Below, piece by piece: positions 2,379 to 60,794 of a DNA stretch of 62,283 nt; the first letter of the stretch is position 1; each line of letters starts with the position of its first letter. The stretch comes from a phage, in the sequence record PZ793367.1; one strand, 5' to 3'. The notes under the pieces are model-generated. The model was given only the letters and a program-made list of their open reading frames with translations, searched no databases and was not told the DNA's origin. The translations under genes and the position numbers were made by a program.

Positions 2379-2440
2379 GATACAATCATCACACGGGGTG
2401 ACATGGAGTTACCCCACTTCGCCCAGGGAGGGCCATAGCA

Positions 2441-3277
2441 ATGACCGCTACCATCAAACTCATCACCGAGCAGACCGCTAACCAACTCGTCGACGCTGTA
2501 AACCGTTCTCAGGCTGACGGCTGGTTCCCGGTCTGCGGCGTCGTGGTCTTCAACGCTCGCTATACTCAGTTAATGGTGCTGGATACTGACGACACGACAC
2601 CGCCAGCCTGCAATTACTTTATCGTAGATGCTGCCGATGACGTGTCGTTCACCCAGCGCGTCAATCAATTACTCGACCTCAATCCCGGCGCTGTTTGCCT
2701 GTCGCCCGTTCAGTATTTCCAGGCTCGCTACATTCAAGCCTACGGCGATGATAGTCACGGTCAAACTACTGGCGGCGCTGTGTTCCGTGCATCGTTCACG
2801 ACGACCAATCTCGTAGCCACGCAGTATGTTACAGCAGACAATACGCCGCAGGTGGTCACCTTCAATGCTCAGGCCATACCTAACGCGGCGCTGGGTACAC
2901 TCGACAACGCCACAGGTATATTCACAGCGGCGCGGCGCATTGTCGGTACTCTGGCTATAAGTTGTCAGGTGCGTCGGACTACTGGCGGCGCTGCGGCGGT
3001 AACGTGGGGATTTCAGGTGGAGACTTCACCGGACGGCATAACATGGACACCGACCGCCGGGAGTGCACGTTACATTAACCTTCGTGGTGCCGGGAATAAC
3101 AACGTTTTGCAGACAACCAACCTCACGGCAGCGGTGGATATTCCAGCAGGTACCCTTGTACGAATTACACAGATGACAGACACGTCATCGGCTAATGTAG
3201 GACTGGTAGCACTTCCAGCCATGTTAGGTGGCGCTACAGCCGCTGGTCTGGTGTTCTCGTTGATTACCACGCTGTGA
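2441..3277 (+). CDS. hypothetical virion protein (possible receptor-binding or adaptor protein)
   Basis: 278-aa ORF with GGAGG-like RBS, Thr/Ala/Gly-rich C-terminal half; precedes a tail-fibre gene. Confidence 0.4.
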   Translation: MTATIKLITEQTANQLVDAVNRSQADGWFPVCGVVVFNARYTQLMVLDTDDTTPPACNYFIVDAADDVSFTQRVNQLLDLNPGAVCLSPVQYFQARYIQAYGDDSHGQTTGGAVFRASFTTTNLVATQYVTADNTPQVVTFNAQAIPNAALGTLDNATGIFTAARRIVGTLAISCQVRRTTGGAAAVTWGFQVETSPDGITWTPTAGSARYINLRGAGNNNVLQTTNLTAAVDIPAGTLVRITQMTDTSSANVGLVALPAMLGGATAAGLVFSLITTL

Positions 3278-3283: not shown

Positions 3284-3299
3284 AGGGGCTTCGGCCCCT
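3284..3299 (+). terminator. GC stem-loop GGGGC-UUCG-GCCCC (terminator or RNA stability element)
   Basis: Perfect 5-6 bp GC stem with UUCG tetraloop 7 nt after stop codon at 3277; weak U-tract. Confidence 0.45.
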
Positions 3300-3318: not shown

Positions 3319-4767
3319 ATGGAACTAACAGTCGCTGGCGGCTACTTCATTCCCGGCAAGACGCCGCAAATTATCAATAAGGTTAATGAGTTAATCGCTC
3401 TCGGCTACGTTCCCTACGGTACCCCGACGTATAACGAGGCCAGCGGTTGGGTAAGTCAGCTAATGGTGCTGGGCTACGGCGGCAGCGCTACTGACTACAC
3501 TCTCACGACGGGTTATCTCGATAAGACTCCCTACTTCCCTAAGAAGCCGCCAGTTAACGGTAATTGGGTGTTGCTCGGCTCACTACTGGCGCGCTCCAAT
3601 AATTTCTACGTGCACGCATGGCTTGACGGCGTAGCCGCTGGCCCACTCATCAATATCGACACGGGTACCACTGGCACGCTACCAGTCAGCCGGGGCGGTA
3701 CAGGGGCAACCACGGAACTGGACGCACGCAACAATCTGGAGTTAGGCGCAGAGGATGACGTGACGTTTAACAGCGTTACCAGTCGCAAGCGCAATACCGG
3801 AACGTCAGCGTTCATTGCTCAGGGCATTGATGGCTACACTCCAGCATCCAGCTTTACAACGCAGATGTACGACACCGCAGGTACCACGTTGCTCGGTCAG
3901 GGCGAGTTCCGCGCCAACAATAACGGTACGCTGCAAATCATCAACCGCGATCCTGTAGGTTCAACGTCATACTTCTGGACCTTCGGACGCGACGGGACTA
4001 CTGAGTTTCCGGGACAAACAATTATTCCCGCAACTCCGGGTAAACCTTGCATCCTCAGGTCGGGCGCTCCGGTTCTCCAGTTTGAGGAAACCGATACTGG
4101 CAAGGTTTACACGATGGTTGCCGATGGTAGCGGTCTGCGTATCAATGCTAACAACACAAGCGGTCCGATCGTATGGGGTTATAGCGGAACAACATCTCGT
4201 CTACAATTACCTGGTATCGAGGGTAACATTCAGATGTATAGCGGCACCACAACCAGCCTCGGTGTAATCACTACTGGCGGCGGTACCACAGCGGTGGGTA
4301 CTCGCAACCAGTTTGAGGTGACCACTTCGGCGGGGTTCTATCTGGTGCGACGTAACACTCAGAACACCACCGGACAATATATTATCAACTTCCCTACGAG
4401 TGCAGGAACCCTGGCCCTCGCAGGTACGTCAGGTATCAATTTCAAACATGACATTATTGACGCCGATTTACTGGAAGCTGTGAACCGCATCGACGCGCTA
4501 CGCATGGTCAACTTTGTCTACAACGACGACGAGCAAAACCGCCAGCGCTTCGGGATTATCGCGGAAGAGGCGGAAACTATAGCTCCGCAGTACATTAAAC
4601 ATCGTGAAGAAATGTATGAATGCGACATTGACGAGAACGGATCATCCATCAACCAGAAGTTCCGCGACCGTCCGTTTGTTGACGTTAACCCCATCGTCAT
4701 GGATTTACTGGGCTACGTTAAGCACTTGTCGGCACGCGTGGCTGAACTGGAAGAGAAATTAAAGTGA
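3319..4767 (+). CDS. tail fibre/tailspike protein with C-terminal intramolecular chaperone (peptidase S74-like) domain
   Basis: Fibre motif LPVSRGGTGATTELDARNNLELG near N-terminus; C-terminal DALRMVNFVYNDDEQNRQRFGIIAEEAETIAPQYI resembles the auto-cleaving chaperone domain. Confidence 0.7.
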   Translation: MELTVAGGYFIPGKTPQIINKVNELIALGYVPYGTPTYNEASGWVSQLMVLGYGGSATDYTLTTGYLDKTPYFPKKPPVNGNWVLLGSLLARSNNFYVHAWLDGVAAGPLINIDTGTTGTLPVSRGGTGATTELDARNNLELGAEDDVTFNSVTSRKRNTGTSAFIAQGIDGYTPASSFTTQMYDTAGTTLLGQGEFRANNNGTLQIINRDPVGSTSYFWTFGRDGTTEFPGQTIIPATPGKPCILRSGAPVLQFEETDTGKVYTMVADGSGLRINANNTSGPIVWGYSGTTSRLQLPGIEGNIQMYSGTTTSLGVITTGGGTTAVGTRNQFEVTTSAGFYLVRRNTQNTTGQYIINFPTSAGTLALAGTSGINFKHDIIDADLLEAVNRIDALRMVNFVYNDDEQNRQRFGIIAEEAETIAPQYIKHREEMYECDIDENGSSINQKFRDRPFVDVNPIVMDLLGYVKHLSARVAELEEKLK

Positions 4768-4799
4768 TGTTATCATGCACTGATTAACGGAGGTGTACT

Positions 4800-4988
4800 A
4801 TGGCAGGACGTCAAGTTTCATACACTACCCGCAGCTTCACTGAAATCGTGAATCGCCTGGACCCGAAGCGACTATCTACCCCGGAAGCGGTATACGTGTT
4901 CGATAACGGAAAGGTGAAGAGCGAGCAGCCGACGCTACCGGGTCACGACTATCGTTGGCTTAAGGACATTGATAATGACAACAGTTAA
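4800..4988 (+). CDS. hypothetical protein
   Basis: 62-aa ORF with GGAGG RBS upstream of ATG. Confidence 0.4.
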   Translation: MAGRQVSYTTRSFTEIVNRLDPKRLSTPEAVYVFDNGKVKSEQPTLPGHDYRWLKDIDNDNS

Positions 4989-5343
4989 CCATGCAGTAAT
5001 TTACACGCGCGGTACAGGTAGCGACGCCATCGAGATTGCAAACTACGAACTGGCCTCCATCATCGGCGAGTGTCTGCACAACGCATACCCCGGCTACCTG
5101 TGGCGTGTAAACGCTGAGATTGAAGGCGGTATCGTTAACATCCTGTGTGGCGACGTGTCCTACGAGTCCGGCGCTACGTTGATGATTGCCGATCTGGAAG
5201 AACCTGTCGCGGCCAAAGCGCTGGTGCTCCGCGCTGGCGGTGAAATCCTGGAACGCGCCAGGCTGCATCGTGGACGTATGCGCGAGCATGAACTGGTGGA
5301 AGCTAAGCGCGACATTCGTGGTAACATCATTGGTTTAAACTGA
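4975..5343 (+). CDS. hypothetical protein
   Basis: ORF in late operon; ATG at 4975 with AAGGA RBS preferred over TTG at 4969. Confidence 0.5.
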   Translation: MTTVNHAVIYTRGTGSDAIEIANYELASIIGECLHNAYPGYLWRVNAEIEGGIVNILCGDVSYESGATLMIADLEEPVAAKALVLRAGGEILERARLHRGRMREHELVEAKRDIRGNIIGLN

Positions 5344-5353
5344 GGATTAAGAG

Positions 5354-7735
5354 ATGCCGAACGCACAAAAGGGGATTAGTGAGTCCCTCGTTGGTCGCGC
5401 GCCGGACACCCAGTCGCCTTACGGCGGCGGTGGTGCTCGCGGGATTACGCAGGTAAACGACGATCCGTACCGCGCTAACCAGATTATTCCGGGCGCTGAA
5501 CTGGACATCAACCAGGCATCCTTCGGTGAGATGGACTCATTCTCCCAGTTCGAGAAGGAAGGCGACACGCTGCAAGCCGAGGAACAGACCTACGACCAAC
5601 CGGACGACTCCGGCGTTGCTGGTATGTCTGAAACTGAGTGGGTAGACCTCGGTCGCCGTTGCTATGACACGGGCCGCACCTTCTACCGTCAGGGCTACCA
5701 GACGCAGCACATCAACGACACCTATCTGTTTAAAGGTCGCCACGAACCGGGCAGCAAGTATTACAGCGAAGCGTTCCGCAACCGCTCGAAAGTTTTCCGC
5801 CCGTTAACCCGCATGGCCTCCCGTAGCTGGGAAGCGGACATTGCAACCGCTCTGTTCCTGAACGATGACTACATGCACATCTCGCCACGCAACGTAACCG
5901 ATCAGGATGCGGATAAAGCGGCGGCAGTGCTGAAGGAAATCGTAAACCTTCGTCTGGATAAAATCTGGTACCCGATTTGTATCGGTGCGGCGCAGGACTC
6001 ATTCATCAATGGGCCAGCAATCGCTAAGGTTTTCTGGTGGCGTGAAACTACCGTTACCAAAACCGACATTCCGGTGCTGGATGAAATGGGTAACCTGGTC
6101 GGTCTGGAAACTACCGAGAACGAAATCGTCGTTCACGATGAGCCGTACATCGACCTGATCCTGCCGGAAAACTTTATCTTTGACCCGACCGCAAAAGCGA
6201 ACGATGTCATCGGTACTGGCAAGTATTTCATCCACAGAAAAATGATGTCTGTTGATGACGTCATGGTACGGATGGAACGCGGCGAGTGGAACATGCTGTC
6301 ACCGGGCGAAATCCTGACGTGTCGCTGGGCGATGGAAGACGACGCCACGCAGCAGGCAAAACGCGGTGAAGGTAAGCCGGACCCAATCAACAACGACAAC
6401 GCTGACACCCGTTACGAATCCGTGATGGTTAACGAAGTGTTCGTCCGCCGTGACGGTATCTGGTACACCTACCACATGATGGGTACCCAGTTCTTACTGG
6501 AAATGCCTGTGGAACTGAAGAACCGCTATCACCACGGTCGCCTGCCGTTCGTTTACGGTACCTGCATGATTGAGTCTCACAATAACGTGCCGGACTCAAA
6601 AGCCCACCTGGGTAGCGAGTTGCAGAAGGCAGTGAACGAAATCAGTAACCAGCGCGTGGACAACGTCAAGCTCGTACTGAACAAGCGTTATCTGGCGCGT
6701 CGCGGTGCATCTATCGACCTGGCCGCTCTGACACGCTCCACTCCGGGCGGCGTAATTTTCACCAGCGACCCGGCTGGCGACCTGATCCCGCAGGAAGTGA
6801 ACGACGTCACCAGTAGCAGCTATGAGGAAACTCAGCGCCTGACTATGGAGATGAACGAAGCGCAGGGTACCTTCAGCGGCCAGGCTGTAGCCAACAACCG
6901 CGAGATGAACGAAACCGTCGGTGGCATGAAGTTGCTGAGCAACGCCGCTACCAAAGTGAACGACTTCGACATCCGTACCTTCGTGTTCACCTTCGTGCGC
7001 CCGGTGCTGGAACTGTTCATGCTCACCGTTCAGTATTATGAGAACGACGAGACGATCATGCACATCGCCGTCGACAACTCGGCCTACTTCCCGCGCCTCA
7101 ACGTGGAAGACCTGACCGACGATCTCATGACTAAACAGCTTGAGATGAAAGTCGATACAGGTATTGGTGCAACTGATCCGGTACAGCGCGTAAACACCTT
7201 GATGTACGGTGTGACGACGGTAATGCAGTTACCCGGCATGGCTGACAACATGGATAGTAAAGCCGTCGGCAGCGCTATCTTCTCAACGCTCGGTCAGGGC
7301 GACGGTAGTAAATTCTTCCCGAATCTGGCGAAGAACTTCCAAGAGCCGCCTCCGTCTGAACCACCAGTTGATCCGCTGGTACAGGCTGCACAGGAAGAAG
7401 CGAAAGGTCGAGTGCAGGAAGCGCAGATTAAAGCTGAACTGGAACTCCAGAAGCAAGCCAACCAACTGGCCGCCGACCGCGAACTGAAGTTGATTCAGAT
7501 GGCGCTTGACGCAGAACTGGAAGGTAAGCGCGGTCAGCTTGATATGTTGCTGTCTATGCTGGATAATGAAACCCGGCTACGGATTGCCGAAGCACAGGAC
7601 AAGACCAAGCGTCAGACCACCGCACTCCAGCACGGAAGCTCATTGCAGCAGACGGCGATGCAGCAGGCCCAGCAAATCGGCCAGCAGGTAACGCCTACTC
7701 AGCAGGAAGTTATCAATGAGTCAAACGTCAAGTAA
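5354..7735 (+). CDS. portal protein
   Basis: 793-aa ORF at the position expected for a portal, between terminase and scaffold/capsid genes; C-terminal Gln/Ala-rich coiled segment. Confidence 0.7.
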   Translation: MPNAQKGISESLVGRAPDTQSPYGGGGARGITQVNDDPYRANQIIPGAELDINQASFGEMDSFSQFEKEGDTLQAEEQTYDQPDDSGVAGMSETEWVDLGRRCYDTGRTFYRQGYQTQHINDTYLFKGRHEPGSKYYSEAFRNRSKVFRPLTRMASRSWEADIATALFLNDDYMHISPRNVTDQDADKAAAVLKEIVNLRLDKIWYPICIGAAQDSFINGPAIAKVFWWRETTVTKTDIPVLDEMGNLVGLETTENEIVVHDEPYIDLILPENFIFDPTAKANDVIGTGKYFIHRKMMSVDDVMVRMERGEWNMLSPGEILTCRWAMEDDATQQAKRGEGKPDPINNDNADTRYESVMVNEVFVRRDGIWYTYHMMGTQFLLEMPVELKNRYHHGRLPFVYGTCMIESHNNVPDSKAHLGSELQKAVNEISNQRVDNVKLVLNKRYLARRGASIDLAALTRSTPGGVIFTSDPAGDLIPQEVNDVTSSSYEETQRLTMEMNEAQGTFSGQAVANNREMNETVGGMKLLSNAATKVNDFDIRTFVFTFVRPVLELFMLTVQYYENDETIMHIAVDNSAYFPRLNVEDLTDDLMTKQLEMKVDTGIGATDPVQRVNTLMYGVTTVMQLPGMADNMDSKAVGSAIFSTLGQGDGSKFFPNLAKNFQEPPPSEPPVDPLVQAAQEEAKGRVQEAQIKAELELQKQANQLAADRELKLIQMALDAELEGKRGQLDMLLSMLDNETRLRIAEAQDKTKRQTTALQHGSSLQQTAMQQAQQIGQQVTPTQQEVINESNVK

Positions 7736-8114
7736 ATCACCTACGAGCGCGCATGTAGTATATGCGCGCAACATTAATCACATTGATATGCGGCAAGATG
7801 ATTTGATGTCGGATACCTTGCCCGTCAATTATCTTTACAGTAAGATAAACATCGGTGAGGATGCCGCTCACTTTTTTACCGAAACGTTGCTGGGCGCGGA
7901 TTTCGATGTGCGCCTTCGCGAGCAGTTCACCGCAGGCTTTGAGAAGTTGCTCACGGCTAACCCGGCGAACACTAGCGAAATTGTAGAGGCACAGATTGCC
8001 TGCCTGACCGTCATCAAAATTTACGAAACGATTGGCGCTCAGATTGAAGAAAAGGAAAGCAGCAAACAGCAGTTAAACCAACAGCAGTTAGATGAAGACG
8101 GAGAAACAGCATGA
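7716..8114 (+). CDS. hypothetical acidic protein
   Basis: 132-aa ORF overlapping portal end, AGGAAG RBS. Confidence 0.4.
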   Translation: MSQTSSKSPTSAHVVYARNINHIDMRQDDLMSDTLPVNYLYSKINIGEDAAHFFTETLLGADFDVRLREQFTAGFEKLLTANPANTSEIVEAQIACLTVIKIYETIGAQIEEKESSKQQLNQQQLDEDGETA

Positions 8115-9391
8115 CTATCCAACAGGACGCCATGACCCGTAAAGCAACCGAAGTATCAAAGCAACAGGTCATTGAAGAGAACAACGCAGCAGCCGTGGCC
8201 GCTGGATTCACCCAGCAGGAAATCGAAGGTGCCAGCGATCATCTGGATGCCGTCGAGAAGACCACCGAGGCCAAGAAAAGTATCACTGACCAGGTGCGCG
8301 AACAGCAAGCCGCTCAAGCTAAAGATCACGAAGACTTCCTCGCCAGCATCGCCGAACGTCGCCGCCAGCATTTAGCTGAAGGTGCAGGTGAAGGTTTCGA
8401 TCTCTACGGTCTTGACAATGACGAAGAAAGTCAGGACAATCAGGTACAGGAAGAAGAAACTGAGGTAGAGCAGGACGCTCAGGTGCAGCAGGAAGCAGCG
8501 CCGCAAGTGGATAACAATGCCCCTCGCTTCTTCACCGACGCCAACGGTAACCAGAAAGTTGAACTTCTGGTAAATGGCAAAGTTCAAGTAGTCGATGCTT
8601 CACGCGTTATCGCGGCAGCCCAAAAGCTGGAAGCAGGTGACGAGCGGTTGCGCCAGGCCGCAGAAGAACGCCAGCGTTTAGAACGCGAACGTGCTGAACT
8701 TGAACAACTAAGACTGGCCTCGCAACAGACTCAACAGCCATCCAGTACGGACGCTGACCCTGATCTGAAAGCGAAATTGCGACAAGGTTTTGAACGCCTT
8801 TATAACGAAGGCGACGATAGCGCACTGGACGAGCTAGTAGATACCCTGGCAAAAGGACGCCAACAGGCCATCCCACAGGTTGATACCACTCAGGTTGTTC
8901 AGCAAGTCATCGTAGAGCAAAACCGGAAAGCATGGGACCATGCCCTGCAAATCGACGCACAGGCTTACGAGTCTGATCCGGCGTATGCAGATGTGGTCGG
9001 TAACCCGGTACTCAGTACCAAAGCAGCACAGTACGCACAGCAACTGGTACGTGAAAGTAATGCACGCGACAACAACATTTCCCCACGGGAGATCATGAAT
9101 CGCGCAGCAAACATGGCACGTAACGAAGCGCGTGAACTGGCAGCGGCTTTAGGTTATACTAGTCAACAGGTTACCACAACGCAGCAGGTTAACTCTCGCG
9201 CAGCAGCAGTTGAAGCTCGTAAGAGTCAGGTAGGTCAAACCGTGCTGGGTAGCGGTGCGCAACGTGAAAGCGAAGCGCCGAAAAAAGCAGCAGTACCGGA
9301 TGGTGGCCGCAGCCCGTCTTCGATGGACGCTAAGTTGGCAGCCTTCTCAGGTCTGACGCAGGGCAGAACCGCCCCAGCAATTAAACGTTAA
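8111..9391 (+). CDS. putative scaffolding protein
   Basis: 426-aa acidic, Gln/Glu/Ala-rich coiled-coil-like ORF immediately upstream of major capsid gene. Confidence 0.5.
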   Translation: MTIQQDAMTRKATEVSKQQVIEENNAAAVAAGFTQQEIEGASDHLDAVEKTTEAKKSITDQVREQQAAQAKDHEDFLASIAERRRQHLAEGAGEGFDLYGLDNDEESQDNQVQEEETEVEQDAQVQQEAAPQVDNNAPRFFTDANGNQKVELLVNGKVQVVDASRVIAAAQKLEAGDERLRQAAEERQRLERERAELEQLRLASQQTQQPSSTDADPDLKAKLRQGFERLYNEGDDSALDELVDTLAKGRQQAIPQVDTTQVVQQVIVEQNRKAWDHALQIDAQAYESDPAYADVVGNPVLSTKAAQYAQQLVRESNARDNNISPREIMNRAANMARNEARELAAALGYTSQQVTTTQQVNSRAAAVEARKSQVGQTVLGSGAQRESEAPKKAAVPDGGRSPSSMDAKLAAFSGLTQGRTAPAIKR

Positions 9392-9413
9392 TCGTTGAAA
9401 GGAGAGTAACACT

Positions 9414-10385
9414 ATGGCAGGTCAATTGTGGGGCGTTGAGCGTCTCGGCGGGTTCATGTACTCAGACCAACTGAGTCAGTATCTGCGCAAAGAAGTACAG
9501 CCGATGATGCGTTTCCGCCAGTTCTGCTCGGCGAAAGAAGCATTTACCTACGGTCGTGGTGACATCTTCCACTGGGATATTTTCACCAACGTTCGTACCC
9601 AGGGCGGTCGTCTGAAAGAAGGTCAGGCTCTGCCAGAAACCAACTTCGAAATCCGCCAGGGTTCCTTGCAGATCGACGAGTTCGGTAACTCTGTACCGTA
9701 CACCAAAAAACTGGACAACTTGTCCAAAGTTCCGGTTGAGAACATTATCCAGTCCGCTCTGAAAGACGACTGTGCTAAAACCCTCGACTACGAAGCGTAC
9801 AACCAGTTCAACCAGACTCGTCTGGTAGCTTCCCCGGTTAGCGGCACCTCCGCTACTCAGGTGAACATCGAAGCCGTGGCCGCCGCTGGTGACCATACTG
9901 CGACTGTGAACGACGCTGCACTGTCTCTGGACCACGTTAAAGCTATCATCGACGAGATGAAAGAGCGTAACATTCCGGGCTACGACGGTGATGACTACTT
10001 CGCTCTGGCGCGTCCGACGACTTTCCGTCCGATTCGTAACGAGATTGAAGAACTGTCTAAGTACGTTGAAAGCGGCTGGCGTAACATTCGCCTGGGCGAA
10101 ATCGGCAAATACGAAGGTTGCCGCTTTGTTGAGCAGACCAACATTCCGTCCAAAGGTTGGACCAATGGTAAGTCTGACGAAGCGTTCTTCTTCGGTGGCG
10201 ATACCGTAACTGAAGCAGTTACCGATCCTGAACAGATTCGTGGTAAACTGCCTACCGACTACGGTCGTTCCAAAGGTGTTGCGTGGTACTACATGGGTGG
10301 TTTCGGTATCGTTCACAACCAGTCTCAGGCTGACGATCCGCAGGCACTTCAGAACCGCATCATCCGTTGGGACTCAGCGTCCTAA
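9414..10385 (+). CDS. major capsid protein
   Basis: 323-aa ORF with strong AAAGGAGAG RBS, followed by a stable hairpin; position and size fit an HK97-fold capsid protein. Confidence 0.7.
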   Translation: MAGQLWGVERLGGFMYSDQLSQYLRKEVQPMMRFRQFCSAKEAFTYGRGDIFHWDIFTNVRTQGGRLKEGQALPETNFEIRQGSLQIDEFGNSVPYTKKLDNLSKVPVENIIQSALKDDCAKTLDYEAYNQFNQTRLVASPVSGTSATQVNIEAVAAAGDHTATVNDAALSLDHVKAIIDEMKERNIPGYDGDDYFALARPTTFRPIRNEIEELSKYVESGWRNIRLGEIGKYEGCRFVEQTNIPSKGWTNGKSDEAFFFGGDTVTEAVTDPEQIRGKLPTDYGRSKGVAWYYMGGFGIVHNQSQADDPQALQNRIIRWDSAS

Positions 10386-10393
10386 GTTTAATC

Positions 10394-10409
10394 GGGGGCT
10401 TCGGCCCCC
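10394..10409 (+). terminator. GC stem-loop GGGGGC-UUCG-GCCCCC after capsid gene
   Basis: 6-bp all-GC stem with UUCG tetraloop 8 nt after capsid stop; same core as hairpins at 3284 and 53430. Confidence 0.5.
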
Positions 10410-10428
10410 AAATTGAAGGAGAAGTAAC

Positions 10429-10629
10429 ATGGCTCAGAACAAAGCGTACGGTATGCCGATCAACGATAGCGCGACTGGCGTACATGCAAAAGACACTGGC
10501 GACGCAAAATGCGGCCTGTCCAGTCTGGAAAAGTTCAAACCGGAAGAATACCCGGTGACTGAACAGGCTCGCTTCTCTGCGGGTCAACGTAACGAAGACG
10601 TCGGTGGCGGCTTCAAACTCGTACAGTAA
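10429..10629 (+). CDS. hypothetical small virion-associated protein
   Basis: 66-aa ORF with GGAG RBS. Confidence 0.4.
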   Translation: MAQNKAYGMPINDSATGVHAKDTGDAKCGLSSLEKFKPEEYPVTEQARFSAGQRNEDVGGGFKLVQ

Positions 10630-10643
10630 TGGAGGCTCGCTAA

Positions 10644-11045
10644 ATGTACTCTTACGATAAACCGCTGTTAGCCAGCTACAACTACAGTGCGCAGAACTTC
10701 GCATCCAGTCCTGCGATCACTCTGCCTGTATCGGCCATCGCTGAACTGTCTCACGACGCCAGCCGTGTGGTTGAAGGTGCTGTAGTTCTCGGTCTGTCCG
10801 GTGTCTACACTTCCGGTACAGGTACCATCGCTATCGGTGACGGTACTACCACTGACCGTTACGGTGTGTTCACTGTTGACAGCACGTCTGCACCGGGCGG
10901 CCCACTGAAGGGTAAACTGGTGTTGACTGAAGAAGGTTATCACATGGGCGTTTCCAACGACGCCAACACCCCGCAGGTGTTTGTGCTGACCTACTCTGGT
11001 GACGCGGTACTGGCAAGTCTGCAAATCACCGTTGGCCGCTACTAA
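10644..11045 (+). CDS. hypothetical structural protein
   Basis: 133-aa Gly/Thr/Ser-rich ORF with GGAGG RBS, followed by strong terminator. Confidence 0.5.
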   Translation: MYSYDKPLLASYNYSAQNFASSPAITLPVSAIAELSHDASRVVEGAVVLGLSGVYTSGTGTIAIGDGTTTDRYGVFTVDSTSAPGGPLKGKLVLTEEGYHMGVSNDANTPQVFVLTYSGDAVLASLQITVGRY

Positions 11046-11063
11046 TTAGCTGCCCTCCCAAAT

Positions 11064-11092
11064 TGGGGTCGCCTTGTGCGGCCCCTTTTTAT
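11064..11092 (+). terminator. rho-independent terminator
   Basis: 8-bp stem GGGGTCGC/GCGGCCCC with 5-nt loop followed by TTTTTATTAT. Confidence 0.7.
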
Positions 11093-11129
11093 TATGTATC
11101 ATTGGAAGACCTATCTGGAGGAAGTGATT

Positions 11130-11435
11130 ATGAAACCATCATACAATCAGGACGATTCAATTTCGTGGGGCCAGCGTACAGAATTTGACGTTGACGCCAT
11201 GAACAGCCAAATGGATTACGGTCGCATGGGTGATTATTTACCGCCTTCCGACGGTACTCGCGGCGCTGAAGATGACCATCCGAATATTGAGAACTTCAAC
11301 ATTCGTGACGGCTATTTGCAGCACAAAGGTCTGGAATCGTTCCGTCCGCACGATGACTGCGGCACTTCGGTTAAACCGATGTACGATCAGCAGGCTGTGT
11401 ACAAAGGCTATGGAGAAAAGAAACGTGGCTATTAA
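11130..11435 (+). CDS. hypothetical protein
   Basis: ATG with GGAGGAAG RBS; 101 aa. Confidence 0.5.
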   Translation: MKPSYNQDDSISWGQRTEFDVDAMNSQMDYGRMGDYLPPSDGTRGAEDDHPNIENFNIRDGYLQHKGLESFRPHDDCGTSVKPMYDQQAVYKGYGEKKRGY

Positions 11436-11715
11436 ACTCGACAAAACCAAACCGTACGGCGTTATTCGTGGTCAACAGACTGGCGCAGTGAAGCTGGCCT
11501 TCTATCAGAACGGTCACTACTTCGACCCGAAAGGTGAACACGTCGATCTGAATCCCGCTCCGGTTAAAGAGCCTGAAGCGCCAGTGATTCCTGTGAAGGA
11601 ACCGGAGCCGGAAGTACCAGTGGTAATTGAAGAACCAGTGGTGGCTGTGAAGCCGAAAGCGAAAGCTGAAAAACCTAAAGCGCAACTGCCTCCGGGCCTG
11701 CCAACTAAGGAGTAA
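11410..11715 (+). CDS. hypothetical protein with Pro/Glu-rich C-terminus
   Basis: ATG at 11410 overlapping previous ORF; PEPEVPVVIEEPVVAVKPKAKAEKPK tail. Confidence 0.5.
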   Translation: MEKRNVAIKLDKTKPYGVIRGQQTGAVKLAFYQNGHYFDPKGEHVDLNPAPVKEPEAPVIPVKEPEPEVPVVIEEPVVAVKPKAKAEKPKAQLPPGLPTKE

Positions 11716-11718
11716 GAT

Positions 11719-12381
11719 ATGTCGAATACCCTGTTAGGAATGTCTCAACGAGTTGCCCGTGACGCAGGGTATTCCGGCAATATCCAGTCGGTAGCTGTGG
11801 TGTCCGGCGACGCTGCGCGCATTGTGCAGTATGTGAAGGACGCCACCACTTATATTGAAAACCTGTGGGGTGACTGGCGCTTCCTGTGGGGCGGTATGCT
11901 TGAAGGTATCGTCGATGTCGGAGAAACGTCAATCCCCGCACCACTCGGTCACTATCGCTGGGACCAGGCACGTCTTATGTTTGACAATCACCTGGTGTAC
12001 CCGGAACTGTTTCATAACTTCAGCCCGTACAGCACCATGCTGGAAAACGGGTACCCGACTCAGTTTGTCATTATGCCGGACTCATCCATCCAGATGTACC
12101 CGCGTCCTGACAAGCAATTCAACTTTCAATTTTCCTGGTACCGTGAGTCCGTAGAGTTGGTCAACGACTCCGACACTCCGCTGGTACCCGCGCGCTTCTG
12201 CAATACAATCGTGGCCTACGCGCTGTGGCTGTATGCAATGTACGATGACGCGGCGGAACTGGCGGCTAAGTCTCAGGCTGAATACGAAAAATACCTGCGC
12301 CTGCTTGAAGCTGACCAGCGTCCAGACGGTTACCCGACCAACCAGTCGTCCGGCAACTTCTTCTCTATCTCAGCGAGTTAA
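11719..12381 (+). CDS. virion structural protein (tail tube/adaptor-like, tentative)
   Basis: 220-aa ORF with AAGGAG RBS; size and position resemble podovirus tail tubular protein A. Confidence 0.35.
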   Translation: MSNTLLGMSQRVARDAGYSGNIQSVAVVSGDAARIVQYVKDATTYIENLWGDWRFLWGGMLEGIVDVGETSIPAPLGHYRWDQARLMFDNHLVYPELFHNFSPYSTMLENGYPTQFVIMPDSSIQMYPRPDKQFNFQFSWYRESVELVNDSDTPLVPARFCNTIVAYALWLYAMYDDAAELAAKSQAEYEKYLRLLEADQRPDGYPTNQSSGNFFSISAS

Positions 12382-19018: not shown

Positions 19019-19321
19019 ATGAGTTTCTTCGGTAGTTTTCTCGATACGGCGTCCAGCGCTTTCAACTGGCTGAGCAACAACAAGGCGGCACTGGATTTAA
19101 TCTCCGGTGCTGCAAAAGGTTACGGTGCTTACATGCAGTACAAGCAGGGTAACCAGCAAATGAAATTGATGCAGAAGCAGCAGGAGAACGAGCAGCGTCG
19201 CTGGAATGATACGCACGGTGTCATCGACAGTTACGACAACTCTATCCCTCCGGGGCAGCAGGCTAACTCTGCGTTGCTGTCCGGCAACATGGCCGACGCA
19301 ATGAAACAAGGAGTCAAATAA
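19019..19321 (+). CDS. hypothetical protein
   Basis: 100-aa ORF with AAGGGG RBS. Confidence 0.4.
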   Translation: MSFFGSFLDTASSAFNWLSNNKAALDLISGAAKGYGAYMQYKQGNQQMKLMQKQQENEQRRWNDTHGVIDSYDNSIPPGQQANSALLSGNMADAMKQGVK

Positions 19322-20280
19322 TGGCACAGGCACAAGGCGGTACCGCAGGTAGCTCATCAACCCGTGGTAACGGCAGCTTATCGGCTGGCGCATCTTCGCG
19401 TGGCGGCGGCTTAGGCGGTGGCCTCGGTGGTAGCAACGGCGGCAGCAATAACGCGGGTAACAGCAAAGGTAACGCTGCGTCGAGCAATGCGGCCAGTGGG
19501 GCTTCAGCAGGCGCAGCAGCGGCAGGCGCAACGGCGGCAGCGGCAGGTGACTCTAAGCAGACTGGCGGCAGCCTCATGGGCGGTCTGAAGTCGGCGGTGG
19601 ATAGCGCACGTTCTTCACGCACCGCAGCAGCCGCACCGTCAACCAGCGCACCACAAGGTACTTTGTCGGCGTCCGACGTTGCAGGCATTGACAGCGAAAG
19701 CCATTCAGCCGCTGCGAACCTGGCAGCACGCGATCAAGGTTTCCGTGACACAGCTAACGCTAAGACCACCGCAGCAACAATGGGCGGCCTCGGTATGGCT
19801 GGTAGTCTCGTAGGCAATCTTGCCAGTAAACTGACAGCAGCGGCAGCACCGACTGAAGGTAGCGACCTGAGCGCTAACCACAACGTTGGTAAGGCGTGGG
19901 CTAACAGCGTCGGTCCCAGCAAAACTGTGAGCATGGCTGCAAGCCTGGCTGGCGGTATTCTCGGCGGTCCTATCGGTTCCGCACTGGCTGGCTTCGCGCT
20001 GGGTATCGCTAACGATCAGGCGGCCAAAGCAGCTAACCCGCAAGCGATGGCCGCTACACCACAGCAGATTGCCAACCGCGCTACGTTCGGTCAGCAGGCT
20101 GGTACCAGCAGTTCCGACCAGTACGATGCTACAGGTGCCAGTTCCGATACCGGCAATAGCGGCAGCAACATGATGGCATCCATGAGCGCAGCAGCACAAC
20201 CTGGCGCTGGCTTCCAGGCGGCTGGCGATTTCAGCGAGCAGCGTAAAGTGGACAACCTCAACTTAGGGAGCATCATCTAA
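19321..20280 (+). CDS. Gly/Ala/Ser-rich low-complexity virion protein
   Basis: 319 aa, AAGGAG RBS; GGLGGGLGGSNGGSNNAGNSKGNAASSNAASGASAGAAAAGATAAAAG. Confidence 0.5.
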   Translation: MAQAQGGTAGSSSTRGNGSLSAGASSRGGGLGGGLGGSNGGSNNAGNSKGNAASSNAASGASAGAAAAGATAAAAGDSKQTGGSLMGGLKSAVDSARSSRTAAAAPSTSAPQGTLSASDVAGIDSESHSAAANLAARDQGFRDTANAKTTAATMGGLGMAGSLVGNLASKLTAAAAPTEGSDLSANHNVGKAWANSVGPSKTVSMAASLAGGILGGPIGSALAGFALGIANDQAAKAANPQAMAATPQQIANRATFGQQAGTSSSDQYDATGASSDTGNSGSNMMASMSAAAQPGAGFQAAGDFSEQRKVDNLNLGSII

Positions 20281-20852: not shown

Positions 20853-21539
20853 ATGTCAATGATGGATGCAATGAGTATGGGCGGCCAGCCTCCGCAGCAG
20901 GAAACGCAGGCACCACAGACTCAACCAATGGACCAGAAGACGTTGCGTATGGGCGGCGATGACCCTGCGGAAATGGAGAAGCTCTATAACAAAGTTATGG
21001 CGCTGATCTCTTCCGAGATTTGGGAAGGTCAGGGTGCCGACCAGGTGTCTGCACAGTTGATGGAAGATGACTCTGAGCCAGCCGAGGTTGTCGGCAAGTT
21101 CACTGGCTTCTATCTTATGATGGCTACTGCCGCTGCCAGAACTAACGGTGGTTCATTCCCGCCTGTGGTTATCGTGGGTGCTGCCGCAGAGACGTCGAGT
21201 CAGCTTACTGATCTGGCGCTTATGCTGAAACTGATCTCCCCGGAAGAAGCGGACGATACCGCAGACGCTGGCGCACTGATTGGTCTGGAAGTTCTCATCG
21301 CCCAGGGCGGTAACCAGATGGCACCTGAAGAGAAACAGGAATACGCCGACATCGTTAAGGCTGTCATCAACGCATCGCCGAACGCTCAGGAAATCGCTGA
21401 GGAAGGTGCCGAGGATGCCATCGAAGAAGTTGAAGAAATGGGCGCACCGGACGACAGCGCTGAAGAGATGGAAGCACAGACCGATGTTGATATGGCAGAG
21501 AAACCGCAGGGCATGGCCGCTGCAATGGGAGGCGCGTAA
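20853..21539 (+). CDS. acidic virion protein
   Basis: 228 aa, AAGGGG RBS, strongly acidic C-terminus. Confidence 0.5.
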   Translation: MSMMDAMSMGGQPPQQETQAPQTQPMDQKTLRMGGDDPAEMEKLYNKVMALISSEIWEGQGADQVSAQLMEDDSEPAEVVGKFTGFYLMMATAAARTNGGSFPPVVIVGAAAETSSQLTDLALMLKLISPEEADDTADAGALIGLEVLIAQGGNQMAPEEKQEYADIVKAVINASPNAQEIAEEGAEDAIEEVEEMGAPDDSAEEMEAQTDVDMAEKPQGMAAAMGGA

Positions 21540-22393
21540 TGAGTATCGGTGAAGCACTGGCGGCAATGTTTGCAGGTGCAGCAGGTGAAGCGGCAGGTAA
21601 CCGCGCGACTGAAATCCGTGACGAAGAAAAAGCTCGTCTGGCAGAAGCACGCGAACTGAAAATGATGGCGCTCCAGCAGAAGTACCAGACGTCCGAGCGT
21701 GAGGCCAGTCAGGCTTACGGTACGTCCGAGCGTAAGGATACTCAGGCTTACAACTCTGCCGAGAAGCAGAAAGACCGTGACTTCCAGTCTTCCGAGCGTC
21801 AGGCATCACAGGCATTCCAGGCTGGCGAGAATGCTAAGTCACGCGCGGCTCAGGCTGGTAGCGATGGTGTTGGTCCAAACGGTAAGCGTCTGCAAGGTAC
21901 ACCGCAGATGGAGAAAGACGAAGACGGCAACATGACGGGTCGTATGATCTTTACCTATCGTGACGGTACCGTGCAGGTTAAAGCCATTGACGATCTGCCG
22001 GGTGGCGACGCTGACACCAAATCCAGCAAAGCACAGCGTGAGTCCGACGCGGCTGCGTATGCTAAGAAGCGTGTCAGCGAGCAAGCTGGCCTCCTGTCAT
22101 CCGATAAGGAAGACTTCAAAGATTATGGTGGTAGTCGCACCAAAGCTGAAGAAGCCTACAAGCAGGAGTATCTCAACAAGAACAAAGGTGGCGGCAGCAA
22201 TGAAGAGTTACCGGGCAGCGGTCCTAAGTTCCAGGAGGGCGCAGATCTGGCGACTAAGGAAGCTGAGAAAGGATACACCGCTAACCAGCAAGCCATGATC
22301 GCTCGCGTTAAGGAGAAGTACCCTGACGCATCCGATGACCAAATCGCGGCGGCCATTCGTGCTAATCCGCAATATGCACCAATGTTCAAATAA
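21539..22393 (+). CDS. hypothetical virion protein with SER-ASQA repeats
   Basis: 284 aa, GGGAGG RBS; four TSEREASQAY-like repeats. Confidence 0.5.
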   Translation: MSIGEALAAMFAGAAGEAAGNRATEIRDEEKARLAEARELKMMALQQKYQTSEREASQAYGTSERKDTQAYNSAEKQKDRDFQSSERQASQAFQAGENAKSRAAQAGSDGVGPNGKRLQGTPQMEKDEDGNMTGRMIFTYRDGTVQVKAIDDLPGGDADTKSSKAQRESDAAAYAKKRVSEQAGLLSSDKEDFKDYGGSRTKAEEAYKQEYLNKNKGGGSNEELPGSGPKFQEGADLATKEAEKGYTANQQAMIARVKEKYPDASDDQIAAAIRANPQYAPMFK

Positions 22394-22434
22394 ATGTGCT
22401 ATGCTTCCCCTATCAACAAGGGGGAGCATTTCTA

Positions 22435-29519: not shown

Positions 29520-29739
29520 TTCAATCCCGGTGGACGCTCCGTTACCTTTCATTGCGATCGCAGTGTTATTCAACCTGGTACGCCATGCGTTGAATCTTCA
29601 CCACGAACGTAAGAAAGAGGCGGCGGAAGAGGCCACGAACGAAAGGATTGTTGTGTTGTCGTCGAAGCTGGCGAAGGCGGAACAGACTATCGAGCACTTG
29701 AGGGAAGAGGTGGAACGCTTGAAAAACAAAGGGGCTTAA
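29506..29739 (+). CDS. membrane-anchored coiled-coil protein (possible spanin-like or lysis accessory protein)
   Basis: N-terminal TM segment LPFIAIAVLFNLV then charged helical region; GGGAG RBS. Confidence 0.45.
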   Translation: MFELSSIPVDAPLPFIAIAVLFNLVRHALNLHHERKKEAAEEATNERIVVLSSKLAKAEQTIEHLREEVERLKNKGA

Positions 29740-29750
29740 CGCCCCTTTTT
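29728..29750. terminator. bidirectional rho-independent terminator at convergent gene junction
   Basis: AAAGGGGC-TTAAC-GCCCCTTTTT; stop codons of both converging genes lie in or next to the loop. Confidence 0.7.
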
Positions 29751-29936
29751 AATACTCGCTGCAATCTTCAGTTCGACAGGTACGCGATTGAGATCGCGGT
29801 GAATGCCTACATCCGGTGGTGCGGAAATACGTAGACCGACGTTACCATTCTCAGAGTTCTCTACCGTCACGACAATATCGTTACCGATGTAGACGCTCTG
29901 ACCTTCACGTCTGGTAATACGGAGTCCCTTAGCCAT
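29736..29936 (-). CDS. csrA: CsrA/RsmA-like RNA-binding regulator
   Basis: [48 protein letters not shown] aligns with E. coli CsrA [44 protein letters not shown]; GGAG RBS. Confidence 0.75.
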   Translation of the reverse strand: [66 protein letters not shown]

Positions 29937-30162
29937 TCTTCTCCGCCTTAGCTTTCTTAGCTTTGATGACGCGACTGATCGCCACCAGTAAAGTAATGAC
30001 ACCAGACACGACCGGGAGATATTCTTCCGGTACCACAGCCTGGAATAAATGCGGGGCAGTCTGCCACACTACTAATGCTGCATCAGGTACCGTGGTCAAC
30101 ACGGTAGTAACGGCGATACCGATAGTGATACCAGCGTCATGCAGCGCTTTGGATTTGTCCAT
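29929..30162 (-). CDS. putative holin
   Basis: 77 aa, two hydrophobic helices and Lys-rich C-terminus KAKKAKAEKNG; AAGGAG RBS; directly downstream of endolysin. Confidence 0.5.
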   Translation of the reverse strand: MDKSKALHDAGITIGIAVTTVLTTVPDAALVVWQTAPHLFQAVVPEEYLPVVSGVITLLVAISRVIKAKKAKAEKNG

Positions 30163-32648: not shown

Positions 32649-32707
32649 TTGTATTTTCCTAACTGGTTTACTTGACGGGGCTAATGTACCCCGCCAGTAA
32701 TTCACCG

Positions 32708-35923: not shown

Positions 35924-35939
35924 GGCCCCTTGCGGGGCC
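35924..35939 (-). other. intergenic GC hairpin with GCAA tetraloop on the transcribed strand
   Basis: GGCCCC-TTGC-GGGGCC between two minus-strand genes. Confidence 0.4.
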
Positions 35940-44854: not shown

Positions 44855-44869
44855 GCGCCCTTAGTTTTT
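44843..44869. terminator. bidirectional rho-independent terminator
   Basis: AAAGGGGCGC-ATAA-GCGCCC followed by TTAGTTTTT; stop codon TAA lies in the loop. Confidence 0.65.
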
Positions 44870-47510: not shown

Positions 47511-47529
47511 AGAGCACCTCGTTTGAGAG

Positions 47530-47547
47530 GGGCGCGGAATTGCGCCC
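47530..47547 (-). other. GC hairpin in phoH 5' leader
   Basis: GGGCGC-GGAATT-GCGCCC about 20 nt upstream of phoH start. Confidence 0.4.
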
Positions 47548-48484: not shown

Positions 48485-48488
48485 GTAA

Positions 48489-53004: not shown

Positions 53005-53232
53005 TTATTTACCCCACCATTTCTTTTTCTTTTCCAGCCAGGCGCAAGCCTCGTTGATAGTGTTGTAATTCTGCGACATCTCGCCGTTGTAGCGTGCGAA
53101 ATATCCCTCATAAAATTTAACAATTTCGTTCCCGTTGCGATCCGCCCACACCGCCGAGTCGTTGCGACTGTCAAAGCTGGTCAGCTTAAAGCCGCCAGGT
53201 GTTAACGCTAAAGCCTGCTCGATGGTCATCAT
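53005..53232 (-). CDS. small protein of the xPxGW family
   Basis: ALTPGGFKL ... NEACAWLEKK pattern shared with family members. Confidence 0.45.
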   Translation of the reverse strand: MMTIEQALALTPGGFKLTSFDSRNDSAVWADRNGNEIVKFYEGYFARYNGEMSQNYNTINEACAWLEKKKKWWGK

Positions 53233-53423
53233 GATATTAATTCCCCTACCGTTACATTGAGCGCCGCAGCTAACTCGGTTAGCGTTTTCAGGCGCGGATT
53301 GTTCGCTTTAAGTACCATGAACAGAGCGCCACGTTTCCAGCCTGCGCGCCGTTCCACCTCACTAAGACTTATGGCCTCCCGCTCGGCCAGGTATTGCACA
53401 CGGGCTTTTAAATTAATCGCCAT
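53229..53423 (-). CDS. Cro/C1-type (XRE-family) helix-turn-helix regulator
   Basis: LSEVERRAGWKRGALFMV...LTELAAALNVTVGELI; ATG at 53423 sits 4 nt after a UUCG hairpin. Confidence 0.6.
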   Translation of the reverse strand: MAINLKARVQYLAEREAISLSEVERRAGWKRGALFMVLKANNPRLKTLTELAAALNVTVGELIS

Positions 53424-53429: not shown

Positions 53430-53443
53430 GGGGCCGAAGCCCC
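53430..53443 (-). other. GGGGC-UUCG-GCCCC hairpin in 5' leader of HTH regulator gene
   Basis: Identical core to hairpins at 3285 and 10395. Confidence 0.45.
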
Positions 53444-53451: not shown

Positions 53452-53637
53452 TTACTTTTCACCACCCTTAGCCACAGCATCACGCGACGTCTGCGCGTTC
53501 TCGGCGCGTTGCTGCGCGTTAGGTGAATCGGACTCAGCGCGCCCGGTTTGACCGGATACGTTTGGATTGTACCCGACGTTAGCAGAGCAACCAGCCAGCA
53601 GAGTAGCCAGGATGATAGCGATGATAGATTTAGACAT
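53452..53637 (-). CDS. small lipoprotein
   Basis: MSKSIIAIILATLLAGCS lipobox; AGGAG RBS at ATG 53637. Confidence 0.5.
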   Translation of the reverse strand: MSKSIIAIILATLLAGCSANVGYNPNVSGQTGRAESDSPNAQQRAENAQTSRDAVAKGGEK

Positions 53638-53699
53638 GTTTGAAGCTCCTATTGTTTGTGATGGAAAGGAGGCCGCCACCACGTCGACCATAAAATTTG

Positions 53700-53816
53700 T
53701 TAACGCCAGAGTTCTACCGGAAGACCGAACACGAACCGGAGAACCGCCCACACTGCAACCATTGACATCACCCACAATGCCAGGGAAAAGGCAAGACCTG
53801 TGATTATGCTTTGCAT
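53700..53816 (-). CDS. tiny transmembrane peptide (38 aa), unlisted in ORF track
   Basis: MQSIITGLAFSLALWVMSMVAVWAVLRFVFGLPVELWR; AAGG RBS; TAATG overlap with upstream peptide. Confidence 0.4.
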   Translation of the reverse strand: MQSIITGLAFSLALWVMSMVAVWAVLRFVFGLPVELWR

Positions 53817-55287: not shown

Positions 55288-55359
55288 TTGCTTATCTCCT
55301 GTTACGGGGTGTTAGTGGTTTTATTGGGGCACCTCGCAAGATGCCCTGTAAATCCGCTA

Positions 55360-59753: not shown

Positions 59754-59800
59754 GATTGCATCTCCTGTTAAGGGTGGGGCACGATGGCCCCGGTGGTTGA

Positions 59801-60745: not shown

Positions 60746-60794
60746 TTTGTTTCTCGCTCTTATTGAGGGTGGGGCCGATGGCCCCGTCAAGTTA

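Follow-up and report, generated by a model that had tools for sequence, protein, structure and literature searches.

A short GC-rich hairpin with a UUCG loop is located directly past the major capsid gene of the phage examined here (the window, i.e., the whole analysed stretch of 62,283 nucleotides of sequence record PZ793367.1), and the same stem and loop recur past a fibre-like gene and ahead of a Cro-like gene. This raises the question of what kind of element the hairpin is, and what it might do between the genes of a phage transcript. The window represents an E. coli podophage of the Xuquatrovirus type, with Pondi, PTXU04, and Bas95 among its relatives.

Three copies of one hairpin and their placement

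The original prediction had recognized the same GC stem and UUCG loop at three sites and in both directions, and the exact 14-mer GGGGCTTCGGCCCC is indeed present at precisely these positions, with three copies in the whole window (3285-3298 and 10395-10408 on the + strand, and 53430-53443 on the - strand; hereafter sites 1, 2, and 3). A search with GGGGCTTCGGCCCC at no more than two mismatches returned four matches vs. 0.37 expected, the fourth being a related hairpin with an AUC loop at 60771-60785 (-). Four matches were reached in 0 of 100 shuffles, ruling out a chance origin of the three copies, and a larger repeat or mobile element could be discarded as well, the sequence common to the three sites being limited to 14-18 nt. 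The stem has 5 bp at site 3 and 6 bp at the two other sites, where it gains one pair (A-U at site 1 and G-C at site 2); apart from this A-U, all pairs are G-C. Taken without their flanks, the hairpins of sites 1, 2, and 3 have predicted nearest-neighbour energies of -11.2, -12.9, and -9.6 kcal/mol, respectively. The remaining TTCG motifs with complementary flanks in the window have stems of 3 bp only.

When read on the mRNA strand (i.e., sense to the flanking genes), sites 1, 2, and 3 all present a UUCG loop closed by a C-G pair. At all three sites the hairpin starts 6-8 nt past the upstream stop codon, within a spacer of 28-43 nt that has co-directional genes on either side. The hairpin of site 1 is followed by UUAUUCACGGAG (containing the Shine-Dalgarno (SD) sequence GGAG) and then the ATG at 3319, while that of site 2 is followed by AAAUUGAAGGAG (with the SD AAGGAG) and then the start codon ATG of the gene downstream, whose ORF is listed as beginning at 10429. 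The gene identities on which the original prediction relied were correct, with 9414-10385 encoding the major capsid protein and 53229-53423 (-) an HTH_3/Cro-C1 protein; the distance of hairpin 3 to the start of the latter had been given as 4 nt and is in fact 6 nt, up to the ATG at 53423.

The absence of a strong U-tract, as pointed out before, was evident from the tails that follow the stems (UUAUUCAC at site 1, AAAUUGAA at site 2, and CAAACUAU at site 3), which contain 4/8, 2/8, and 2/8 U, respectively, vs. at least 5/8 in the U-rich tract of an intrinsic terminator. A terminator scan of the sense strand flagged none of the three hairpins, and lacking a U-run they are not canonical terminators. 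The scan did flag the + strand of site 3 (GGGGCCGAAGCCCC followed by ACCCTTTATT), and an antisense terminator was therefore considered; it was rejected, since the T's begin 4 nt past the stem, no + strand genes are nearby, and the CGAA loop is not special. An N4-type DNA hairpin promoter also seems unlikely, given that two sites fall within the late structural operon, where genes are tightly packed, and that no polymerase gene was identified in the annotations consulted. Rfam at gathering score gave 0 matches in the whole window, and a tRNA search found nothing.

The window was also scanned for strong perfect hairpins, and those on the sense strand, without T-run, and starting 7-13 nt past stops were taken as a wider set (Table 1). 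A strong sense hairpin starting no more than 15 nt past the stop was found for 10 of 86 genes, vs. 1.6 +/- 1.2 at random positions, and several hairpins of the set use UNCG or GNRA loops, on the sense strand only. The hairpin at 35924-35939 is identical in PTXU04, Pondi, and Bas95, and the relatives' version of that at 55327-55346 reads AGGCAUCU-(U/C)GCG-GGGUGCCU, in which the outer pair has changed from G-C to A-U (a compensatory change) and the inner pair from U-A to U.G. The gene that follows the hairpin at 60771-60785 probably starts at 60745. Canonical terminators with a T-run are located at 11065-11085 and at both convergent junctions (29728-29748 and 44843-44862), and since true T-run terminators are thus present elsewhere in the genome, the U-run-less hairpins constitute a separate class. 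Judged by these features, the three sites belong to a group of about ten conserved GC-rich hairpins without U-run that appear to punctuate long polycistronic transcripts. Binding by CsrA was rejected as an explanation, because the UUCG loops have no GGA and the sole hairpin with a GGA loop (2395-2415) is not kept in relatives.

Some further features of the window were recorded alongside. Sigma-70-like promoters were located in the leftward intergenic gaps, and no phage RNA polymerase is noted in the annotations consulted. RNA-handling proteins of the phage include an Rv2179c-like 3'-5' exoribonuclease, a CsrA homologue, a PhoH-like ATPase, and a PNKP-type phosphatase.

Table 1. Hairpins, neighbouring genes, and terminator in the window, and post-capsid hairpins of related lineages (stems and loops in RNA letters; identity refers to the capsid protein).
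Feature	Position	Strand	Context
Fibre-like gene, 278 aa	2441..3277	+	PHROG tail fibre matches; upstream of hairpin 1
Hairpin 1, AGGGGC-UUCG-GCCCCU	3284..3299	+	6 nt past TGA of gene 2441-3277
Tail fibre gene with Peptidase_S74 chaperone domain	3319..4767	+	Downstream of hairpin 1
Major capsid protein gene	9414..10385	+	Upstream of hairpin 2
Hairpin 2, GGGGGC-UUCG-GCCCCC	10394..10409	+	8 nt past capsid TAA (10385)
Two small genes (ORFs 10429-10629 and 10644-11045)	10429..11045	+	Homologues of PTXU04 gp11 and gp12
Canonical intrinsic terminator, GGGGUCGC-CUUGU-GCGGCCCC then UUUUUAUUAU	11065..11085	+	Ends capsid-gp11-gp12 block
Hairpin sequestering SD-like GGGGGAG	22401..22429	+	Hairpin scan
UGGCGGGGU-ACAUUA-GCCCCGUCA	32673..32696	-	After DNA polymerase gene; no U-run
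GGCCCC-GCAA-GGGGCC (GNRA loop)	35924..35939	-	9 nt past stop of ssDNA-binding-like gene; no U-run
GGGCGC-AAUUCC-GCGCCC	47530..47547	-	8 nt past stop, upstream of PhoH
64-aa HTH_3/Cro-C1-type regulator	53229..53423	-	PF01381 2.4e-5, PF13443 4.2e-5, phrog_8; downstream of hairpin 3
Hairpin 3, GGGGC-UUCG-GCCCC	53430..53443	-	8 nt past TAATAA (ending 53452)
Gene ending in TAATAA, no family match	53452..53775	-	Listed ORF; upstream of hairpin 3
GGGCAUCU-UGCG-AGGUGCCC (UNCG-type loop)	55327..55346	-	Hairpin scan; no U-run
GGGGC-CAUCGU-GCCCC	59776..59791	-	9 nt past stop; then AGGAG and ATG
GGGGCC-AUC-GGCCCC	60771..60785	-	After TAATAA of DUF7421 gene
Post-capsid hairpin GGGGGC-UUCG-GCCCCC			Window, PTXU04, Pondi, Bas95, L062
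Post-capsid hairpin GGGGCG-CUAGU-CGCCCC			L063, 90% identity
Post-capsid hairpin CGGGGGC-UUCG-GCCCCCG (7 bp)			L056, 86% identity
Post-capsid hairpin GCGGGG-UUCG-CCCCGC			L066, 72% identity
Post-capsid hairpin GGGCGC-UUCG-GUGCCC			L047, 71% identity
Post-capsid hairpin GCGGGG-GUAACA-CCCCGC			L065, 70% identity

Conservation in relatives and occurrence in unrelated phages

Across the 3-kb capsid region (9000-12000), nucleotide identity to the window amounts to 95.8% for Pondi, 94% for PTXU04, and 88% for HelliStehle/Bas95. PTXU04 and Pondi carry all three hairpins, and Bas95, which is more distant, carries hairpins 1 and 2. Hairpin 1 is identical in PTXU04 and Pondi, while hairpin 2 is 16/16 identical in Bas95 even though the 8-nt spacer before it is scrambled. 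The three hairpins are real and conserved.

Relatives of the capsid protein were drawn from viral and metagenome collections, and the region just past the capsid stop was inspected in each (a TerL-based search for relatives returned only very distant phages). Because a MAFFT alignment of the post-capsid hairpins misplaced a third of its rows, stems were compared by inspection. A GC-rich hairpin past the capsid stop was found in all 10 lineages with at least 70% capsid-protein identity. The stem of lineage L047 carries one swap from G-C to C-G as well as one G.U pair, the latter pairing only as RNA and on this strand. At 37-54% capsid identity, seven lineages have a post-capsid hairpin, some of them with U-runs, and a distant pair of lineages (L067 and L068) differs in both stem and loop (GGGGCGGG-GUAA-CCCGCCUU vs. 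GGGGCCGG-GAAA-CCGGCCUU). The structural conservation of the post-capsid hairpin reaches down to approximately 45-50% capsid identity; in 10 more distant capsid lineages no post-capsid hairpin was found, since there the next gene abuts the capsid gene. These comparisons indicate that it is the structure rather than the sequence that is conserved past the capsid gene, with both stems and loops (UUCG, GUAA, GAAA) varying.

At least 120 unrelated IMG/VR contigs also contain the exact 14-mer GGGGCTTCGGCCCC. Among the matches listed, 113 copies had enough flank to be placed relative to ORFs (of at least 60 aa), and 100 of these 113 were located no more than 30 nt past an ORF stop in the UUCG orientation; by the same criterion, only 16 of the 113 listed copies did so in the opposite (antisense) orientation, with random positions giving 9.6%. 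The distance from stop to hairpin in these other phages peaks, among the matches listed, at 5-9 nt, as in the window. The 8 nt past the stem, scored for 127 copies among the matches listed, contain at least 5 T's in 55 copies, 3-4 in 34, and at most 2 in 38. Since copies thus exist both with and without a terminator tail, the element is best described as a generic, strand-specific, post-gene phage RNA hairpin, and since the roughly 43% of listed copies with a U-run are probably plain terminators, the class would be functionally mixed. The hairpin is specific neither to this phage nor to its three sites.

Site 1 is also where an alternative at the DNA level has to be considered, i.e., that the hairpin is a protein-binding site or a conserved linker for the recombinational exchange of modules such as fibre cassettes. 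The product of the upstream gene (2441-3277) has its N-terminal ~100 aa in common with Bas95 gp4, and the proteins flanking the site are 23-33% identical to those of Bas95 over a shared N-terminal domain. At the DNA level, the sole significant match between the window and Bas95 within 800 nt is a 26-nt block of hairpin and SD (25/26, E 3e-8), which forms an island of identity between otherwise unalignable fibre cassettes and, like the threefold presence of an identical 14-mer in one genome, could point to such a linker. However, every copy is in sense orientation to the mRNA, the TTCG at its centre lacks palindromic symmetry, and stable RNA tetraloops are formed on the sense strand only. Moreover, the helix is kept via G.U and compensatory changes that alter the sequence and would be incompatible with a sequence-specific DNA site, and the sense bias in other phages (100 vs. 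16 among the matches listed) is difficult to explain for such a site. A DNA-level element is therefore very improbable, and a recombination-linker role at site 1 would be secondary.

The confinement of stable tetraloops to the sense strand, the G.U and compensatory changes in relatives, and the sense bias in other phages instead support the view that the hairpins act as RNA on the mRNA strand. The pattern of change further suggests that helix and stable loops are under selection, just beyond the translated region.

Candidate roles in the transcript

With the existence, RNA-strand specificity, position, conservation, and generality of the hairpins established, we infer for them the function of an exonuclease barrier and, at site 3, of a split ribosome-binding site. 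Our preferred reading, to which we assign about an even chance, is that they are members of the C(UUCG)G intercistronic class whose likeliest role would be that of a barrier to 3' exonucleases, stabilizing the upstream mRNA. At all three sites, a stable stem-loop is located past a cistron, in an untranslated position, and inside a longer transcript. The hairpin would form in the mRNA past the upstream stop and ahead of the next ribosome-binding site, while the polycistronic transcripts would end at distant terminators or be cut by endonucleases. PNPase and RNase II, digesting from 3' to 5', would then stall at the hairpin, as a result of which the upstream cistron (e.g., the capsid mRNA) would outlive the RNA downstream. 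At site 1, with its UUAUU tail, a fraction of the transcripts may also terminate, and at site 3 the hairpin probably also serves as a looped-out spacer bringing an SD-like AAGGG near the AUG of the Cro-like gene.

For site 2, it had been proposed that the placement of the hairpin raises capsid expression relative to the downstream genes. The conserved post-capsid structure in relatives fits a role tied to the capsid mRNA, and gp10 of PTXU04 is its most prominent virion band (PMC6563267). The extent of the effect had to be reconsidered, though: PTXU04 gp11 and gp12, the homologues of the two genes that follow, are visible virion bands as well (PMC6563267), and the closest true terminator is found 650 nt downstream of site 2, past both of them. 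This terminator (11065-11085) is annotated by ARNOLD in PTXU04 and kept in PTXU04, Bas95, and L062. Since gp11 and gp12 are visible virion proteins and real termination is encoded only after them, any drop in expression across the capsid hairpin would be moderate or partial.

Alternatively, the hairpins could be leaky intrinsic terminators or attenuators, which would halt some of the host RNA polymerases and reduce downstream transcription. The GC-rich stems are indeed located directly past genes, the stem of site 1 is followed by UUAUU in the window and by UUAUUCAU in Bas95, and the 7-bp capsid hairpin of L056 (86% identity) by ACUUUUAA. In addition, 55 of 127 copies in other phages have at least 5/8 T among the matches listed, and the terminators of phiKZ consist of a conserved stem-loop followed by TTAT (PMC10914365). 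Nevertheless, the tails of sites 2 and 3 are AAAUUGAA and CAAACUAU, the scan flagged 0/3 on the sense strand, and the genome places proper T-run terminators at the ends of operons. In the polymerases tested, intrinsic termination needs a U-tract (PMC3993855), making efficient termination by the host polymerase unlikely for hairpins devoid of a U-run. Together with the abundance of gp11 and gp12 in virions, this renders the leaky-terminator reading rather unlikely.

Since the hairpins separate the stop of one gene from the start of the following one, they could also be translational elements that insulate or couple neighbouring cistrons, without an important effect on RNA stability; at site 3 such an element would be a looped-out spacer or would repress the Cro-like start. 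A ribosome terminating 6-8 nt ahead of the hairpin would presumably touch its base; a predicted outer helix at site 1 joins the following SD to the region of the stop codon, and the hairpin at 22401-22429 sequesters an SD-like GGGGGAG. On the other hand, such outer helices are weak and not conserved (with none at site 2 of Bas95), and ordinary free SDs at normal spacing are present at sites 1 and 2. In other phages, moreover, the position of the hairpin follows the upstream stop (at 5-9 nt) and not the downstream start, and many copies are not closely followed by a gene. As a general account, a purely translational role thus seems quite unlikely.

Site 3 deserves separate consideration in this respect. 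Its layout, AAGGG-U-[14-nt hairpin]-CAAACU-AUG, is kept in PTXU04 and Pondi and contains a weak SD match ahead of the hairpin, while none is located between the hairpin and the Cro-like AUG. The AAGGG is separated from the AUG by 21 nt when unfolded and by approximately 7 nt with hairpin 3 looped out, an arrangement that has counterparts in T4 (genes 38 and 25) and in an unrelated contig (L138), where AAGGAG-[same hairpin]-UAAAACU-AUG precedes another HTH gene. The G-run at this site allows alternative folds in some sequence contexts. Since 1 nt is deleted in Pondi within the spacer from hairpin to Cro-like ATG, hairpin 3 must be non-coding, and the longer ORF with GTG start annotated as PTXU04_00070 must be wrong. 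The Cro-like gene of Bas95 has no hairpin 3 and starts instead with an ordinary GGGAG about 7 nt ahead of a GTG, indicating that the hairpin is dispensable for this gene.

The original prediction had preferred an RNA stability or processing element over a simple terminator; the sense-strand RNA features and the missing U-run bear out that the hairpins act as RNA and are not canonical terminators, while processing by RNase III is at odds with stems of only 5-6 bp. RNase III needs roughly two helical turns of dsRNA, and the outer helices that could extend the core stems are, as mentioned, weak and not conserved. Processing sites for RNase III or RNase E, or stimulators of readthrough or frameshifting, could be envisaged from the intercistronic position (as in T7 RNase III sites), from the AAAUU after site 2, which resembles an RNase E motif, and from the 6-8 nt gap past the stop, which is like that of recoding stimulators, with a -1 frame that is open from 10367 to 10558. 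However, no slippery heptamer is found ahead of the stops, and in-frame readthrough at site 2 would add only 1 codon. In Bas95, moreover, the -1 frame is closed immediately (CAA AUU UAA), and the frames at site 1 are related to each other differently than in the window. Processing or recoding is thus the explanation we find hardest to credit, and highly improbable.

A more speculative extension of the exonuclease-barrier reading is that the U-run-less hairpins constitute a genome-wide punctuation working with the phage's own RNA-handling proteins, e.g., by protecting the cistrons of the phage against a 3' exonuclease of its own that removes host mRNA, and that blocks of hairpin and SD might also be swap joints for fibre cassettes. 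We regard this as a long shot.

If the stabilizer role is true, it would explain protein ratios within the long operons of a podophage that depends on the host polymerase, and the element, with its 14-16 nt, would lend itself to adjusting expression as a compact part. Regardless of role, the hairpins mark true gene boundaries (the start of PTXU04_00070 is annotated too early, and the Cro-like gene is unannotated in Pondi), and they allow real terminators to be distinguished from U-run-less hairpins in a group of phages of which little is understood and which has entered functional genomics (with PTXU04 in CRISPRi-ART). The papers by Korf, on BASEL, and on CRISPRi-ART that deal with PTXU04/Bas95 do not mention these hairpins, and the PTXU04 record lists only ARNOLD terminators, at other positions. 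Since the hairpins belong to a class known in phages since 1988, the finding is an ordinary one; it leaves the current understanding of phage gene expression unchanged, and its value is mostly in annotation.

Comparison with known systems

The hairpins share with intrinsic terminators a GC-rich hairpin directly past a gene, and in other phages a T-run frequently follows the same 14-mer. Unlike terminators, sites 2 and 3 lack a U-run and site 1 has no more than UUAUU, with the canonical terminators of this genome being separate (at 11065, 29728, and 44843). T7-type RNase III sites are likewise intercistronic RNA structures in phage polycistronic mRNA, but are duplexes of ~20 bp or more with internal loops as opposed to the 5-6 bp found here.

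The E. coli REP sequences (malE-malF) and the hairpins past the capsid genes of phiX174 stabilize mRNA. As in these systems, the hairpins described here are stable stem-loops inside polycistronic mRNA without efficient termination. The known stabilizers protect the upstream segment from 3' exonucleases and cause unequal expression within an operon, a feature that is putative here. REP elements are, however, longer host-specific repeats with binding proteins of their own, in contrast to a minimal tetraloop hairpin of 14-16 nt.

Site 3 resembles the split ribosome-binding site of T4 genes 38 and 25, in which a hairpin is located between SD and AUG (PMC3014915), in that its hairpin likewise separates an SD-like sequence from the AUG and would shorten the distance from ~21 nt to ~7 nt when looped out. 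In split sites of this type, the spacing from SD to start codon is 5-11 nt once the hairpin is looped out. Site 3 is unlike the T4 genes in that its AAGGG is a weak, putative SD, that the hairpin is also 8 nt past a stop, and that the Bas95 gene has no hairpin.

The closest counterparts are the extra-stable C(UUCG)G hairpins, first described in 1988 in intercistronic regions of T4 (Tuerk et al., cited in PMC8948821) and found in many phages. The class is defined as (X)2-8CUUCGG(Y)2-8, predominantly intergenic in phage mRNA, and with varied roles including mRNA stabilization (PMC8948821). As RNA, its members are further marked by unusual thermal stability and by a reverse-transcriptase stop. 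The present copies belong to an unrelated 60-kb podophage group (Xuquatrovirus), are unannotated, and share an identical 14 nt in three places, in which respects they differ from the T4 set. In common with it, they have a UUCG loop, a C-G closing pair, a short GC stem, an intergenic position on the sense strand, and several copies per genome, so that every sequence-level feature in the definition of the class (i.e., the loop, complementary flanks of 2-8 nt, and the intergenic location) is found at all three sites.

Hairpins at gene boundaries and within coding sequence

The 11-bp hairpin begins 7 nt past the stop codon of gene 21539-22393 and ends 5 nt upstream of the probable ATG (22435) of the gene for a 2,210-aa giant protein, and it is kept in both PTXU04 and Pondi. 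Since its 3′ arm holds the SD-like AGGGGGAG, this element has the appearance of an SD-sequestering or coupling structure.

Two further hairpins were situated within coding sequence. The 10-bp GC-rich hairpin lies directly past the stop codon of a 793-aa gene, yet within the overlapping next ORF. Because its Bas95 counterpart is shifted in position and differs in sequence (UGCGCGCGUG-AAA-UACGCGCGUA), conservation of the structure itself is suggested. The small hairpin at the end of the capsid gene is kept in Bas95 with two synonymous, compensatory changes (C-G to U-A), and L047, a relative with 71% capsid identity, carries at this place a different hairpin, of 6 bp.

Features outside the UUCG hairpins
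Feature	Position	Strand	Remark
Hairpin GGGGUGAC-AUGGA-GUUACCCC	2395-2415	+	between the terminase gene and the gene after it
10-bp GC-rich hairpin GCGCGCAUGU-AGU-AUAUGCGCGC	7747-7769	+	
Small hairpin GGGAC-UCAGC-GUCCU	10369-10383	+	spans the final five capsid codons
11-bp hairpin	22401-22429	+	predicted -17.5 kcal/mol
PhoH-like ATPase	in 46818-49842	-	
Protein with Rv2179c-like 3′-5′ exoribonuclease domain	in 46818-49842	-	E 1e-36
PNKP-type HAD phosphatase	in 46818-49842	-	
Strong sigma-70-like promoters	46781-46809, 48456-48484, 51006-51034, 61016-61044	-	leftward intergenic gaps

Leftward promoters and gene starts

The leftward gaps contain strong sigma-70-like promoters, in which TTGACA or TTGACG is separated by 17 nt from TATATT or TAAATT. 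They suggest that the host polymerase uses several promoters to transcribe the early and middle region. The same strand also carries a cluster of RNA- and nucleotide-handling genes.

For the Cro-like gene (53229-53483 region, minus strand), the supported start is the ATG at 53423. In PTXU04, the annotated GTG start of PTXU04_00070 (53504-53755) lies upstream of the UUCG hairpin that precedes this gene, and the ORF as annotated overlaps the preceding gene; in Pondi, the Cro-like gene (19183-19373) is not annotated. For the long ORF 59801-60874 (minus strand), the ATG at 60745 is the probable start rather than 60874; its upstream part is taken up by a hairpin and by the DUF7421 gene at 60795-60977.

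Fibre cassettes and two elements of Bas95

The fibre-like proteins encoded on either side of the first UUCG hairpin, by 2441-3277 and 3319-4767 (plus strand), each have an N-terminal domain of about 90 aa in common with the Bas95 counterparts of the other (gp4, gp5 and gp6; 4044-6435 of the Bas95 sequence, L005). This domain looks like a common virion-attachment module carried by fibre cassettes that would be exchangeable. Bas95 also carries a homing endonuclease gene adjoining its terminase gene (L005 2372-3910) and an intein within its helicase gene (L005 35982-36977), both absent from the window.

A CsrA homologue and a GGA-loop hairpin

The phage encodes a CsrA homologue (29739-30002, minus strand; PF02599, E 3.7e-12), and its PTXU04 counterpart, gp28, scored 'Semi-fit' in a CRISPRi-ART screen (PMC11879866). 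The hairpin following the terminase gene had no match in PTXU04, Pondi or Bas95 by pattern search. Its loop contains GGA and resembles a CsrA binding motif.
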